In this document: one piece after another, positions 173-41,967 of the stretch
How the letters are laid out: each line of letters starts with the position of its first letter
Numbering within the stretch: position 1 is the first letter of the stretch
Assembly (NCBI GenBank): GCA_039621445.1
Contig: CP154954.1
Span: 22,456,954 to 22,520,953, forward strand
Source: Euglena gracilis
Taxonomy: Eukaryota
DNA length: 64,000 bases
Reading direction: 5' to 3'
Made by a program: the position numbers and the translations under genes
The notes under the pieces: model-generated
Database searches by the model: none
What the model was told of the DNA's origin: nothing
Seen by the model: the letters and a program-made list of their open reading frames with translations, nothing else

Positions 173-29499
<29,327 letters not shown>

Positions 29500-33962: not shown

Positions 33963-34306
<344 letters not shown>

Positions 34307-34558: not shown

Positions 34559-37500
34559 TCAGCGGCGCCAGCACAGGCGGAACCGGCCGCCCGTGCTGGC
34601 CCCCGGCTGCAGCTCCGCCCGGCACGCCTCGCACCGGCAGTCAAAGCCCCGGGCGGAGAGGAGGGCCGCCCGGCGCTGGGCCGGGGGGCCGGGCCCAGGG
34701 CTTGGTGGCAGCCAACCGGGCCCAGTTGGCTGTGGGGGGGGGATGGGGAGGGGTTGAACCCACACTGGACGTGAGGGGCATGCGACACACGGGATTGACA
34801 AAGGGGGGAACATTGCCACAGGAAGGGCAAACGCCGTGAAATGCGTCCGTTGTGGATGGACACGGGTTGCTGATGCGACACAAATGAAAGAGCTGCACGA
34901 AGTTACTGAACTGCCTTCAACGGAGGCACCACAACCCATGCCCCCAAAAAATTTCCTATCATGGCATTGCTCATCCCTTGGCACCAATCCCTCATCCCCG
35001 AAGACCCTCGAAGAACCCCACTGCCCCCCCATGACCATTTTCCCTCTTTTCCCACCCACCCAGCCACCCACCTACCCACACACTCGAGCCACCAAAACTA
35101 TTTGACTCCCGCATTCCCCTCAAACCGAGCCCTGGTCGTGCAATTCTTGGGGATCGAGGTAGCTCATGTGCAGCGCTGCCCCCTGGAAGAGCGGAAGGAT
35201 CTCTCATCCAAAAGGTCCTCCCCGCCCAAGCTTGGAACAACGCCGCGAAATGATTCCTTGCGATCTCCATCAACGGTCATTGAAAAAGATTCTGAACCAC
35301 AATCTTCCTCTTGCCACGCTTTTTTTGCAGAGCTGTTTCCACAAACATGACAGTGAACAGGCTATCCAGAAAGACCGCATCTGACTGGGGGGGGGTCGTT
35401 AGACAAGCTCACTCGCTGGACTTAGAGGGCGAGGTATAAAAACCTTTGCCAGAAGTGCCTTGGCTGAGTGCCCAAGCACTTTTGGCCATGTGCCTCAACC
35501 CCCCTGGGGGGATCTGGGTGCCTTGGAGTGCCTGCCCAAGCAGGCAACCACTGGGGGGGGGGGATCGGCCTTTCATTCTACCCTGTCAAATACGAACTTC
35601 CATTCTGTATTTTTCACGCACTAGACGCAATTTTTTGTTGTTTGAAACGTTTTCCTGGAGGAAAATTTTCTCTGGTATTGTAGAAAGACAGAGGTAACTG
35701 TATGACTTGGCTCCAAAACTATCAATTCCAGAGCATATGTATGATCTTTGTCTTGGGATACATATTGGGAGGCAAAATACAGCAGTCGAGTACTTGATGG
35801 TGATAATTAAGAAAATGTGTGGTTCAGACAACACGCGAGACGGGGAGGAAGGTGAAAACTACAATGACACTTTTACATGCTTTGTTGCGCTTCAACTTAA
35901 AAAAAATTGTCAGACGAAAAACCCCAATAACGATTTTTACTTGATTTGGCATGATTTATTTTGGGAAGAATAGACTTGCATGGTCATGATTGATATATTC
36001 ACGTGATTTCACACATCATGCCTTTTTGGTGAAAAACCTGCCTTTTGCATTTCTCTTTTGACTGTCAGCTCTGACCATCTGCAGCACCTCACCCTTAAGA
36101 ATGGGACGCCAAGATAATGAGGGAGAACGGAATATGGACACACAAACTCCCGAAGTTGCTTCTGAAACGAGATGATCGTTGATGCTGAACATGAGAAAAC
36201 TGGCGAAAAGCAAATCAACGGCACTCAACGCCTTGTTCCAACATACCCACCCACTCACCCATCTACACCTCCCCCACGTGAACCCCAAATCACACCCGGG
36301 GGATGCGGCGGGTCGCCCGGCACACAAGTTGGACCGACTCGCTGGCCATCCCCTGGCCGGGGGTTGGGACGTCCAGCAGGTTGATCGTGCAGCCCGTGTT
36401 GGGTCGGCAGACCGTTGCCCCCCCGGGCCACACAAGCTGTGGACGGGGGGGGGGACCAGTCCAGGGGGGGGGGGGGGCTACGGCCTGGGTGGGGGCACAG
36501 CTGTGGTTCAGCAGGGAGGCGAGGGGGAAGAGGCAGCGCACGTTGGCCTGTGGCGGGGGGGGGGGGTGGGGGGGGAAGAGTGCTCGAAAGTCCTACCGAC
36601 AGATAGGGGGGAGAGTGAGAGGGCGGGAAAGAAAAAGCAAATGCCATTTTCTGATTAACAACAGTAGCAAATCACATTCTTTTCGTCGGACACGTGGGGA
36701 CAAAGACACCGGGTTGATTCGACCACCCGGGGGGTCTCGCTGTCCCCCCCCCCCCCTTGGGTGCCTGCCCGGGGCAACCCTGCAGCTCCCCCTGGTTGGG
36801 GTGGGGGTCGGCCTCAACTTCAAATTAAGCTTGATCAAGCCATGTTATTGGGGAGACTCCAGGCCCCGCCCAGCCCCCCTGCACACCTTGGCGGGCCGCT
36901 CCTGCCGGCCGTCCACAAACTGCACCCGCTTCTCCAGCCCGTTGCCGCGGAACCCACCGTACGCCGCGAGGAGGTCCGCCGCGGCCAGCCCGCCGCGCTG
37001 GGCGAAAGGCAGGGCGTTGAACGCGGCCGTCAGGGCCTGGCTCTCCGCCTGTGTTGGGAGGGGTAAAGAGGGCAGGTGGGGGTTCAGACTCCTGGATTCG
37101 GTTCAGGAGGGGGGGTGGGGGGGACCCCCCCCACCTAAACAATTGCGCAATCTGGGTGTCCGATTTTCAGCCCAGCGCTTTGCGCTGGGCCGAAAAATTC
37201 TGACCCCTAAAACCGCCAGAAGTGCCATTTTGGGCACATTTTGGGCAAAAATTTGTCAAAAATGCAAAAAAAGATCTTCGGCGTGAAGTGCTAGAAGGAA
37301 AAAAAAATGCTCTTTTTGGGGGGTGGCCTGGGCACGATCGGTCCGGGCCCTACTGGCAGGTGGAGGGGGGTGGTCTGGACCCCCTCCGATCCGGGGGTGG
37401 GGGCAACACCCACCTAAATTCTGCACGCCCTCCTTATATCGATCCTTGGACCAGGGGGGCTGGCCATCCATATGGCGTTTGGGGTATGGCGCTTACTGTA

Positions 37501-40500
37501 ACCACATGGCGTATGGCACTGACCGCAATGATATGACGGATGGCACTAAGACCCCCCGGGGAGGGGATGGGCGGCTGGATGGTATTTGTTGAGGGGCCAG
37601 TTCCCCCCCAACGCAGACCCAACATATTACTTTGGTCACTTTTGGCAAAAAAACTTGTCCAAATTGCCAACCGGAAGAAAACCTTGGGGGGGGGGCAGGT
37701 ACCCCTGGGGTCGGTCAGGACCCCCCTTGGGAAATGAGGGGTGGTCAGGACCCAGCCCCCCAAAGCCTGGCACCCTCCTTATATCGAACCCTGGGGTCAG
37801 GTCATTTTTTTGGGTACCAATTCCTGGAACACCCCGGGACCCTGGGCACACCACTTGCAACCCTCTCCTCCAGCACAACCATAATCAATTCCCAAGGGAG
37901 GGTTCAATATCGAACCACAGATCTGAAAATGAAGTGGTTGACTCAAGCCCAAGCAAGCCTGCATGACATATGCCAATAATTTTGTCACCAAAATTTGGTC
38001 TTGATGCCACAAAAAAGGGGGTGGGCGGTACGGAGACACGCTGGAGACACGTGCCATGCATACATGCGTGCATGTACCACACATACCGTACCTACCGAAC
38101 ATAACGTACATTACGTACATATACTGGAGACCGTTGAAGGCACGTACCGTACATACCATACATTACATACACGCACCGTACATACTGTACATACCATACA
38201 TTACACACACATACCGGAGACACGCTGACATCGCGGGGCAGGCCGGCCAGCAGCGGCCCCAGTGCGGCGTGGAGGGGGCCGGCCCGCAGGGCGAGGTAGG
38301 CGGGGAGGAAGGCGGCGGGGCTGGCGTCGCTGCTAACCACCGCGAAGGCGGCCTGGGGCACCGGTTGTATGCAATATTCCCTTCCCATTATCTGCCTTGC
38401 CAGTAGGTTGTCAGTGGAGTTCTTATTCCTGAAATATTGTCACCCATCAAATAACACACACACACACACACATAATATACATATATCATATAATATATGT
38501 GTAATATATGTTATAACATGTGGTGTATATACTATATAATATATAATAATATAAAATATAATATGTATAATATAATATATATATACATTTTTAAATATAA
38601 CATATATAATAGAATAATATATAATATATTGTGTATAATACATATAATATGCATTCAAAACATATCCAAATGGTGGAATTAAACGTACATCCAGAAAGAA
38701 GACATTCGTGCAACACACCTTCTCGTGAAAGATCACTTCACCTGCATCAATGTCCCTGCCAACCCTCAGCCCCAGACCCATATCTGGTATCAAGCCTTTG
38801 CGTGTGGGCGAGTTGGGAAAACACTTGTCACTTGGGATGAAACACCTGGAATCAGAAAATGTGCTTCAAATTGAGAGAAAAATAACACATAACACATAAT
38901 TAAATACGCGTTGGCATATTAATGCAATGTGTGGATTCCTCTGCACAAGAATAATTTCAGAGGCCACGGATAAAACGGGGGTTGGATTGGAGGCAGAGGG
39001 AAGCGGGGGCGGTGCAGGAGCTTGGTTGGCACCACGGAGACCTCCAGCGCTATGCTGCGCACCAGGAAACGCCCCAGCACCTCGTCCAGGGTAGAGAAGC
39101 GATGCAGACCTGGCAGCACGAAATGCTTCCCCAAAGCCAAGCCCCACGTTTCCAAATACACAGCCCTCCACCGGGGTGCTTTTGGCATCCTGTGCCATAC
39201 TGGCTCATTCTGCCAAAAAAAACAACCAATTATTCTGAATACTGCTTTTTTCTCATTTACCCAATCATATCCAATGCACTTTTTCTTCGGTGTGTGTGCA
39301 GCTTGTTCTTGTTGTCATGCCTGATTGTGCTATACCATCAGCAAAACATAATTGGTAATCCTTCTATATAAACATAAATATAACTCTGGGAAACTTGCTG
39401 TATTATACTGGAAAATGCACGGCACATTGGCTGTTCAGAACGAGGGGGATGTGACACCTGGAAAGCGGATCGATGCTGCCTGGCCAGCCGGCTCGGTGCG
39501 GGTGTAGGTGTGAACAGGCACGTCCCCTTCAGCCTCAGGTGTGGGCAATACTGGGTCGTAGTCTGCTGCCCCCTGGGCCTCGGGAGGCCTGCAGCAGAAA
39601 TGAAATAAAACACAGAACAACAAGGCAGAAAGCCAGGAGGAGAGCTCCGTTCTGTCCTGTTCCTCGTGCAATTGTCTCCGCCCCATTTCATTTTTTAAAT
39701 GCACAGCACAATGGAATGCACAACCGAGTAACACAGCACCACACAATACTCTTCACAAATTCTTTATGGTTTGGATCTGACCCTCTGGTGTGCATTCATG
39801 TGCATGTGCGTAATGACATTCACAAGTGATCCACAAAGAGGGAAGAAACGCAATGGGATCCAAAATGCGGGTGGAAAAGAAGAACAGTCTTCAAAAACTT
39901 TGGAGCCAAATGTGCCAAAAAGAACTGCAAAAATCTTCTTTGTGGTTTTGCCACTCATCAAAATTCCACAATGCGAATTTTCATAGAAAAAATGATATTG
40001 GAACAATTTCACTGAATAAAATACGAAATTCGAGGAGGAAAAAAAACCTGGTGGAGAAAAAAACACAAATCAGCGAATTTCGCAAAACTGAAAAGAAGCA
40101 AGAAAACCAGAAAAAGCACCCCCAAAGCACCATACAGGGTTGGAGGAGCGAGGCCCTGGGCAGCCGCGGTGGCCCGCAGCACATCTTCCAGCGGCGGCAC
40201 AAAATCCTCCGCGTGGAACTCGGGCGCTGTAGACGTGGGGCGAAGGAGGGCTACAAAAGAAGGTTCGCTGCTGGTTGCAGGGGTTGCAGGCATAAGAGCA
40301 CCACTGTGTTGGGGCAGAGCATGTGTTTCGATCAAACGCTTTTCCTTTTCAGGACCCGGCAGAAATGGGGGGGACAGCGCCCACCCCTGCTTTTGCGGGG
40401 CATTTTTTGGGTCCAAATTTTTCTTGGTGCTTCATGCTGCCCCCGCCGGCCCCCCTTCCCAGGTCACCAACCATAAAATATTTGAATTTGAAGAATATAC

Positions 40501-41967
40501 GCGACCGTATCACCATTATGAGTTGATACCCGAAATCCTCATTGCAGGAACCCTCCCCCAGAATGATGCTTTTGCGAAAACTTCATTCAGGTGTCTGTGG
40601 TCAGAGGCTGGTGGGGCAGTCAGGTGCTGGGGTTTGGTCGGTCCGAAAACCTTCCATTTTCCAAAAAAAATTTATGGGGGGTCAAGGCGGCGGAGGGAGA
40701 GACCCGTCAGGCAGGGAGGAGGGTCAGGAGGCGCTGGGGCGAAGGCGTCGGGCACAGGGTCAGCCACCGGCCCTGAGACGGGGGGGGGGGGGGAGGGGGG
40801 GGGCCAACCGGAAGGGGGGGGGGGGGTGGGTCGACCCCGCCCACCCACCACAGCAAGGAAATTTTGACCTAAAAATCGTCGCCCGGGAAATATGGGAAAG
40901 CCTTGGGTGGGGATTGTCGCCCCCCCCCCCTTCATCAGGACGTGGGTGGGGTGGTGGCTGACTCCCCCCCAACCATGGGGTTTCAGGGATTCTTGAAAGC
41001 CCTGGCCGAGGGGCCCTGGAGAGGGCAGTGGACGGTTTGGCTGATTGCCACTGGGTGGGGGGATGGGTGGGGGGAAACGAGACCCCAAGGGGGGGGCGAA
41101 GCAAGGCCGAAGCCGAAGCCGAAGCCTGCACGAAAACAACAATGCGTGGGGGGGGCAATACTGGGCTGTGGAGTTGTGGACGACACGGCTCGATCGAGCA
41201 CTGCTGGTTTCGGCGGGTCTGAGAAAGCAACAAACAGAGGTAAACACAGCCGAACTGGTGTCATTGATGGTTCTTTGGCCGGTGTGCTTTTTGGGCGAGC
41301 ACAATGCAGTCTGCAAGGTGGTGATGCACCGCAGAAGTCGAAAAAGCAATTTGCGATTGCCCCAAGGAATTACGGAATCCAACCCGATTTGGCAGAGGTT
41401 AGATTGAGGCTGAAATGGTGGAAGATTTATGGATGATTTTTCACAACACAGTGGCCGCTTCCTTCCCACCACCAACGTCACACCAGCCCTAACCTGGTCC
41501 CTCACCCTGAACTGGATGCAAAGCCTTAATCCTATCCGAAACCTGAACTCCTGCCCTCAATGGCAACCTCTAACAATGTATGTCACAGCCTCCCCCCCCC
41601 CCGTCCTGCTCCACCCCTCCTGTCTTGTGCCATTTGTGTCCTTCCATCGAAATGCATACGCGACCCCAGCCGGACCAGGGGTGACCCTTCCCACACCCGG
41701 CCATACAATGGTGTCATCATTCAGCCTGTACCCACAACCAACCCTGGGGGGGGGGGGCTTGGAGTGCCTGGTCTTGGTTTTAGGGGCAGGTGGTGTTTGC
41801 GTGTGAACGTGGATGTGTGGACGTGTGGACCAGGGGGGTGGGAGCAGCGGACCCGGGGTCGGGGTGCACTCCGTCAGGGCCGCCTCCAGCAGGGCGTCCA
41901 CGTCGTCCGCGGGGGGCGGCAGGACGAGGGAGTCCAGGAGGGCGTCCGGGTCGAACTCCGCGGCCAT
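34559..41967 (-). CDS. Multi-exon SET-domain protein (SMYD-like lysine methyltransferase) with a long Pro-rich N-terminus and post-SET cysteines
   Basis: Exons: 41853-41967 (ATG), 41162-41218, (unresolved small exons 40590-40775), 40136-40303, 39458-39588, 39028-39199, 38719-38785, 38230-38352, 36887-37048, 36491-36547, 36296-36400, 36077-36093, 35138-35165, 34559-34690 (TGA). Motifs after splicing: MGLGLRVGRDIDAGEVIFHE (GxG), LFPLASLLNHSCAPN (NHSCxPN), CRATRRIPRGEVLQMSYL (GEEL-x-SY), RGFDCRCEAC (post-SET CxCxxC). Confidence 0.88.
34691..35137 (-). other. Nonconventional intron in the SET gene
   Basis: Boundaries C|GACCAGGGCTCGGT ... ACCAAGCCCTGGGCCC|G. 10 of 11 positions pair from +4/-6. 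Removal gives ELH-GPPAQRR. Confidence 0.88.
35166..36076 (-). other. Nonconventional intron in the SET gene
   Basis: Boundaries T|GGTCAGAGCTG ... CAGCGCTGCACAT|G, with CAG at +4..+6 and CTG at -8..-6. Removal gives GEVLQM-SYL. Confidence 0.88.
36401..36490 (-). other. 90-nt nonconventional intron splitting the NHSCAP/N motif (exact boundary can slide within a CCC repeat)
   Basis: The 5' end ACCCAGGCCGTAGCCCCCC pairs with the 3' end GGGGGGCAACGGTCTG. No GT/GC-AG solution exists. Removal restores NHSCAPN. Confidence 0.8.
38786..39027 (-). other. Nonconventional intron in the SET gene
   Basis: Boundaries C|AACCAAGCTCCTGC ... GCAAAGGCTTGATACC|A with pairing in the +4/-6 register. Removal gives EVSVVP-DMGLGLRV. 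Confidence 0.8.

Follow-up and report, generated by a model that had tools for sequence, protein, structure and literature searches.

The window analysed here is a stretch of 64,000 nucleotides of Euglena gracilis DNA (assembly GCA_039621445.1, contig CP154954.1, positions 22,456,954 to 22,520,953), and its minus strand carries between 41967 and 34559 the SET-domain gene with which this report is concerned. Very probably (we put it at about 0.85), this is a nuclear gene of E. gracilis or of a very close relative, encoding a SMYD-like, MYND-less SET methyltransferase and interrupted by eight GT...CAG introns, three nonconventional introns and one further non-GT-AG intron. A fourth nonconventional intron, proposed in a sequence-only reading of the same DNA, is not supported by the known mRNA, and neither is its GEVLQM mini-exon.

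A transcript-named protein defines the exons

The translation of exon 9 (36887-37048, minus strand) retrieved one protein only, with 100% identity over 54 residues. This protein is EG_transcript_11344 of Euglena gracilis (413 residues, hereafter P0001), the source entry of which is EukProt EP00667_Euglena_gracilis_P011121; its cluster has 1 member. Judging from its name, it presumably originates from a transcriptome assembly. Exact P0001 peptides were located in the window, all donor and acceptor positions were enumerated for each pair of neighbouring exons, and the combination with the fewest protein mismatches was kept. The absence of introns from the mRNA is, in this way, judged through the transcript-named protein of a 97.3%-identical copy. 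The resulting gene map is as follows; in the text, introns are written in the direction of transcription, i.e. from the higher to the lower coordinate.

41967..34559, minus strand: coding region of the SET-domain gene; 13 exons, 12 introns, 413 codons plus stop
41967-41853, 41218-41162, 40772-40719, 40232-40136, 39588-39458, 39109-39028, minus strand: exons 1-6, from the P0001 mapping
38785-38719, 38352-38215, 37048-36887, 36547-36491, 36400-36296, 35182-35138, 34690-34559, minus strand: exons 7-13, from the P0001 mapping

The spliced 13-exon model is 1242 nt long and reads through to a single terminal stop, and 402 of its 413 residues (97.3%) are identical to P0001. Removal of the four introns proposed earlier together with four GT-AG introns also produces a single open frame with a terminal stop, so that the earlier description is consistent in itself. 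The attribution to a euglenid genome, made beforehand from the letters, is borne out by the identity with the E. gracilis protein and by the nearest relative. Among 1.84 billion representatives, 185 match at E values up to 0.001, and below 1e-10 only P0001 itself and a SET protein of the euglenid Eutreptiella gymnastica (UniRef100_A0A7S1J295, P0002) are found, the latter being 35% identical over 273 residues (E 2e-60) and collinear from the pre-SET to the post-SET part.

A Pfam search had been suggested as a check of the spliced protein. The SET model (PF00856) matches P0001 over residues 182-363 at 30.2 bits, above the cut-off of 22.4; the search was run on P0001, to which the window product is identical at 402/413 positions, with 2 of the differences inside residues 182-363. 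After intron removal, the NHSC-x-PN pseudoknot (NHSCAPN), the catalytic tyrosine (...MSY) and the post-SET cysteine cluster (FDCRCEAC) are all present and, over 150 aligned SET relatives, the motif columns hold Y in 149/150 and G in 142/150. That the SET motifs assemble on splicing is thus correct for NHSCAPN, SY and the post-SET motif; GEVLQMSY, which had been listed with them, is not in the transcript product. The C-terminus of the protein lies 43 residues past the last intron. The surroundings of the gene are GC-rich, with many homopolymer runs and microsatellites.

Three introns with paired, non-GT-AG ends

Three of the introns named in the sequence-only reading are missing from P0001:

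38786..39027, minus strand: nonconventional intron (the first listed in that reading), 242 nt; junction SVVP|DMGLG, 0 mismatches to P0001
36401..36490, minus strand: nonconventional intron (the second listed), 90 nt; junction NHSCAP|NTGCT, 0 mismatches to P0001
34691..35137, minus strand: nonconventional intron (the fourth listed), 447 nt; junction PQELH|GPPAQ, 0 mismatches to P0001

The boundaries of each were slid over all positions that keep the protein, and every slide was screened for GT-AG, GC-AG and AT-AC; none of the 15 slides (6, 6 and 3 for 39027..38786, 36490..36401 and 35137..34691, respectively) gave a canonical pair. End-pairing was expressed as the duplex energy of the first 20 nt against the last 20 nt and compared with 300 shuffles of the 3’ end. 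In the same order, the energies are -12.4, -22.3 and -21.5 kcal/mol, matched by only 2, 1 and 4 of the 300 shuffles. The claim that these segments are non-GT-AG introns with paired ends therefore holds for all three. With the construct of PMC11170887 (10 nt, U7, 10 nt), the energies are -5.7, -3.2 and -9.8 kcal/mol.

The paired blocks lie in the published register, the block starting at +4 (CAAGC, CAGGCCGT and CAGGGCT) facing a block that ends 5, 7 and 5 nt, respectively, before the 3’ junction. Intron 39027..38786 begins with AAC-CAAGC and ends with GCTTG-ATACC, followed by exon base A; its core pair is CAAG/CTTG and not CAG/CTG, i.e. a CAA/TTG core in which the third pair is a compensated A:T for G:C. 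Intron 36490..36401 begins with ACC-CAGGCCGT and ends with ACGGTCTG-CCGACCC, again followed by exon base A; CAG/CTG is present, with a 3’ spacer of 7 nt instead of 5-6. Intron 35137..34691, which begins with GAC-CAGGGCT and ends with AGCCCTG-GGCCC before exon base G, fits the published N3-CAG/CTG-N5|R code exactly, and equally the consensus for E. gracilis.

In P0001, the three introns fall at residue 179|180 (39027..38786), after residue 320 (36490..36401) and after residue 370 (35137..34691). Since the Pfam SET envelope (182-363) contains only 36490..36401, their earlier placement inside one SET domain is true in a loose sense, the other two lying outside it. Within 39100..34559, these three transcript-supported, end-paired introns alternate with four GT-AG introns, and the presence of two intron classes in one pre-mRNA, as proposed, is upheld.

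Intron 36490..36401 is exactly 90 nt long, in frame and open (30 codons; open reading frame 36290..36592, minus strand), and left unspliced would add a Pro/Gly-rich insert of 30 residues between NHSCAP and NTGC with no truncation. Retention was considered for each of the three and rejected: for 39027..38786, the 242 nt would shift the frame; for 35137..34691, a TGA is reached after 5 codons; and for 36490..36401, which can be read through, the motif is uninterrupted both in P0001 (NHSCAPN) and in the Eutreptiella ortholog (NHCCAPN).

The nonconventional nuclear introns of euglenids reportedly came to light in a handful of E. gracilis genes and are treated genome-wide in PMC11170887 and PMC12501133. 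For E. gracilis, PMC11170887 reports the consensus CCAGG (+3..+7) and CCTG (-9..-6), and PMC12501133 reports a genetically defined code, N3-CDG/CH’G-N5-6|R, the strict form of which is present in 61.2% of nonconventional introns and missing from about 39%. The introns described here share with this class the non-GT-AG, ‘slidable’ borders and the company of GT-AG introns in the same gene; nothing essential differs. Departures from the strict code are slight, namely the CAA/TTG core of 39027..38786 and the 7-nt 3’ spacer of 36490..36401, which place these two introns among the roughly 39% without the strict signature. A ‘+2’ variant of the 3’ spacer was still spliced, at a reduced level, in the assay of PMC12501133. 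Mixed genes are common as well. In E. agilis 71.8% of introns are nonconventional and “many genes contain both” (PMC12501133), and in E. gracilis 4,498 + 11,653 (16,151) nonconventional introns stand against 11,527 GT-AG introns (PMC11170887). Genes with mixed introns are thus already known for Euglena, and a public collection already contains the transcript product of this one.

A fourth site where transcript product and proposed model differ

The remaining intron of the sequence-only reading concerns the following features:

36077..36093, minus strand: mini-exon of that reading, 17 nt; GEVLQ plus bases 1 and 2 of the M codon
35166..36076, minus strand: third nonconventional intron claimed there; ends fit N3-CAG/CTG-N5|G; missing from the splicing of the transcript product
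35183..36295, minus strand: GT...CAG intron, 1113 nt; CGG|GTGTGA...TCTTCCAG|GGGGCA; 0 mismatches to P0001

At this site P0001 reads ATRRIPRGAALHMSY (in context, ...ATRRIPRGAALHMSYLDPQELH...), a sequence reproduced with 0 mismatches by the junction 36295..35183. GEVLQMSY is absent from P0001, the only transcript-derived product, and GAALHMSY stands there instead; it is encoded by 35182..35159, which joins ...RRIPR of exon 11 and adjoins, without a break, the 28-nt exon of the earlier model. P0001 thus uses as coding sequence 35182..35166, inside the claimed intron 36076..35166, and the GT-AG intron 36295..35183 contains both the mini-exon and the 5’ end of that claimed intron. The end duplex of 36076..35166 (-11.4 kcal/mol) is matched by 54/300 shuffles and is no better than chance. 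Furthermore, the acceptor of the mini-exon would be AAG, as against CAG in 8/8 conventional introns of the gene. Of the four non-GT-AG, end-paired introns proposed, this is the one that is not supported.

Several observations nevertheless weigh against the reading that P0001 gives the splicing of this gene. Firstly, the window product and P0001 differ at 11 residues; P0001 therefore derives from a different allele, copy or strain, and the way it is spliced is presumed to hold for the window locus. Secondly, the ends of 36076..35166 agree in full with the code established by experiment (N3-CAG ... CTG-N5|G). Thirdly, the mini-exon encodes G-E-x-L, and among the 150 aligned SET relatives the second motif column holds E in 74/150 and A in 14/150. 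The third column holds E in 94 and A in 22, and the fifth holds H in 5/149; V and Q, which GEVLQ has at the third and fifth positions, are outside the top eight residues listed for those columns. The Eutreptiella ortholog reads GEPLHICY where P0001 reads GAALHMSY, sharing GE with the mini-exon version and LH with that of P0001. Fourthly, no other stretch of the intron matches the opening 18 nt of exon 12 better, without gaps, than the mini-exon does, at 13/18 bases (7/500 shuffles); the match is 19/30 when 12 nt of acceptor are added (2/500 shuffles) and 22/42 over 42 nt (43/500). A gapped local alignment of the mini-exon region with the exon-12 region gave only a 10-nt match, the score of which was equalled by 218/300 shuffles, and for this reason the idea of a duplication comes from the ungapped test only. 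Finally, a profile of the relatives scores GAALHM at 371.2, GEVLQM at 368.0 and both together at 359.3 bits, values that cannot separate the isoforms; they were set aside because the difference is too small and because, where few relatives cover a column, the consensus looked like P0001.

In all likelihood the mini-exon is a relic, perhaps of a duplication of the exon-12 start that has since decayed, or else a chance look-alike; it may also be an alternative exon that is unused, or used rarely in a minor form. Searches of the protein collection for a second isoform or fragment returned none. Exon 9 with longer lengths admitted retrieved P0001 alone, from a single-member cluster; at near lengths, P0001 found only itself among 8000 scored candidates, and P0001 residues 320-413 at shorter lengths found 0/3 candidates; given the single-member cluster, all of these negatives are weak evidence.

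Two rival explanations have to be set beside this. We consider it improbable that the full model of the sequence-only reading holds, in which exon 11 would be joined to the mini-exon via the AAG, 36076..35166 would then be removed to give RGEVLQMSY, and P0001 would represent a different copy or a minor isoform. Such splicing keeps the frame and gives an equal length of 413 residues, the claimed ends fit the N3-CAG/CTG-N5|G of PMC12501133, GE is nearer the family consensus, and the mini-exon resembles the start of exon 12 in the two closest comparisons (7/500 and 2/500 shuffles). The sole transcript-derived sequence has GAALHMSY, however, and this is intact, with its CAG acceptor, in the window; the chance-level pairing, the AAG acceptor and the weak negative searches for a second isoform all point the same way.

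We give the same low odds to the suggestion that the mini-exon and the opening 17 nt of exon 12 (35182..35166) are diverged duplicates used in a mutually exclusive manner, the choice of acceptor deciding whether nonconventional excision is needed. If true, the two intron systems acting jointly would switch a SET methyltransferase between two versions of the GExL motif that adjoins its catalytic tyrosine. Marginally less probable again is that both forms are actually made, the spliceosome’s choice of acceptor being set against completion by nonconventional excision in an overlapping or atypical exon-skipping event. The two products would be in frame and of equal length, the two 17-18-nt segments are alike, and PMC11170887 lists for E. 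gracilis 59 events of overlapping intron pairs and 10 of atypical skipped exons; yet the second form is without transcript support, its pairing is weak and its AAG acceptor is poor.

Conventional introns and a further non-GT-AG intron

In addition to 36295..35183, the P0001 mapping places seven conventional introns and one other non-GT-AG intron in the gene:

41852..41219, 41161..40773, 40135..39589, 39457..39110, minus strand: GT...CAG introns of the upstream part
38353..38718, minus strand: GT...CAG intron, 366 nt
37049..38214, minus strand: GT...CAG intron, 1166 nt; 38214 is the donor position that fits P0001 (DxSVSP kept)
36548..36886, minus strand: GT...CAG intron, 339 nt
40233..40718, minus strand: further non-GT-AG intron, 486 nt, in the N-terminal low-complexity part and upstream of the range of the sequence-only reading

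The end duplexes of the eight GT-AG introns range from -1.3 to -27.3 kcal/mol and are matched by 33 to 294 of 300 shuffles. The strongest belongs to 36886..36548, the ends of which (GTGTGCAGGGGGG... and ...CCCCCCCCCGCCACAG) resemble in this respect the euglenid introns described as ‘intermediate’ or hybrid; as 33/300 shuffles match its -27.3 kcal/mol, the energy is explained by runs of G and C.

Intron 40718..40233 can be slid to CT..GT, TC..TC or CC..CT, and the mapping that fits P0001 best leaves 4 mismatches, confined to the flanking residues. No CAG/CTG was found in register, and its end duplex (-6.9 kcal/mol) is matched by 256/300 shuffles. It would join the nonconventional introns that do not carry the published signature.

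Degenerate short tandem repeats (ACATACCGT-like, with a period of about 9) and a long AT-rich tract of ATATA type are seen at 38081-38217, the 5’ end of intron 38214..37049, and at 38440-38640, inside intron 38718..38353.

Relation to SMYD-type proteins

Among solved structures, P0001 is most like SmyD1 (3n71_A), its C-terminal SET half aligning to SmyD1 residues 196-284 with an E value of 6.7e-06; the best solved relatives, which are SmyD1 chains, cover only the part of P0001 from NHSC to post-SET. Common to P0001 and the SMYD type are the NHSC-x-PN motif, the catalytic SY, a post-SET F-x-C-x-C-x2-C and a long insert separating the GxG half from the NHSC half. A MYND zinc finger was not detected in P0001 in the Pfam search, where SET was the only match at E values up to 0.1. 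The likeness of the Euglena protein to the SMYD subfamily is thus confined to the SET and post-SET parts: no MYND finger was detected, there is no room for a TPR-like C-terminal domain in the 43 residues past the last intron, and the GEEL motif is degenerate, reading GAAL.

Elsewhere in the window

About 250 nt downstream of the stop codon of the gene lies a long inverted repeat, 33963-34306, with arms of 58 nt (33963-34020 and 34249-34306, 91% complementary) and an adjoining second arm pair of 54 nt (34017-34070 and 34198-34251, 87%), on either side of a (GT)n microsatellite about 110 nt long. In appearance the repeat is a foldback or MITE-like element. At about 3400-6400, some 3 kb give, in several frames of both strands, translations that are almost entirely Ala with occasional Val or Thr, which indicates a very long trinucleotide repeat of GCN type; for the bin 4001-6000 the AT skew is -0.847. 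Rfam at the gathering threshold gave 0 matches over the whole window, and 30 nt of exon 11, scanned against metagenomes, likewise gave 0 matches.

Proposed splicing route and its meaning

In the three nonconventional introns, the C-A-(A)-G block from +4 would pair with the C-(T)-T-G block that lies 5-7 nt before the 3’ junction, and the terminal helix so formed would juxtapose the two junctions and bring the splice sites together. Going by the literature, conventional introns may be taken out first and nonconventional introns later, by a different route. This order is the one given in PMC6221363. Nonconventional removal is described as ‘presumably spliceosome independent’ in PMC11170887, which calls for experimental verification, and its machinery as still to be identified in PMC12501133. 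That two classes of intron mean two machineries is the working view of this literature. If conventional introns do leave first, 36295..35183 would go, and with it the 5’ end of the claimed intron 36076..35166, before the second system came into play.

Since mixed intron types within one gene are the rule in Euglena, the gene carries little weight beyond annotation. It does provide a worked example in which euglenid nonconventional junctions were recoverable from protein motifs without tools, and a caution, in that a motif-guided choice of exons can invent a plausible exon (GEVLQM) where the mRNA has a degenerate GAALHM. The splicing, if any, of the code-compliant and apparently unused intron 36076..35166 would be informative about competition between the two systems where their sites overlap.

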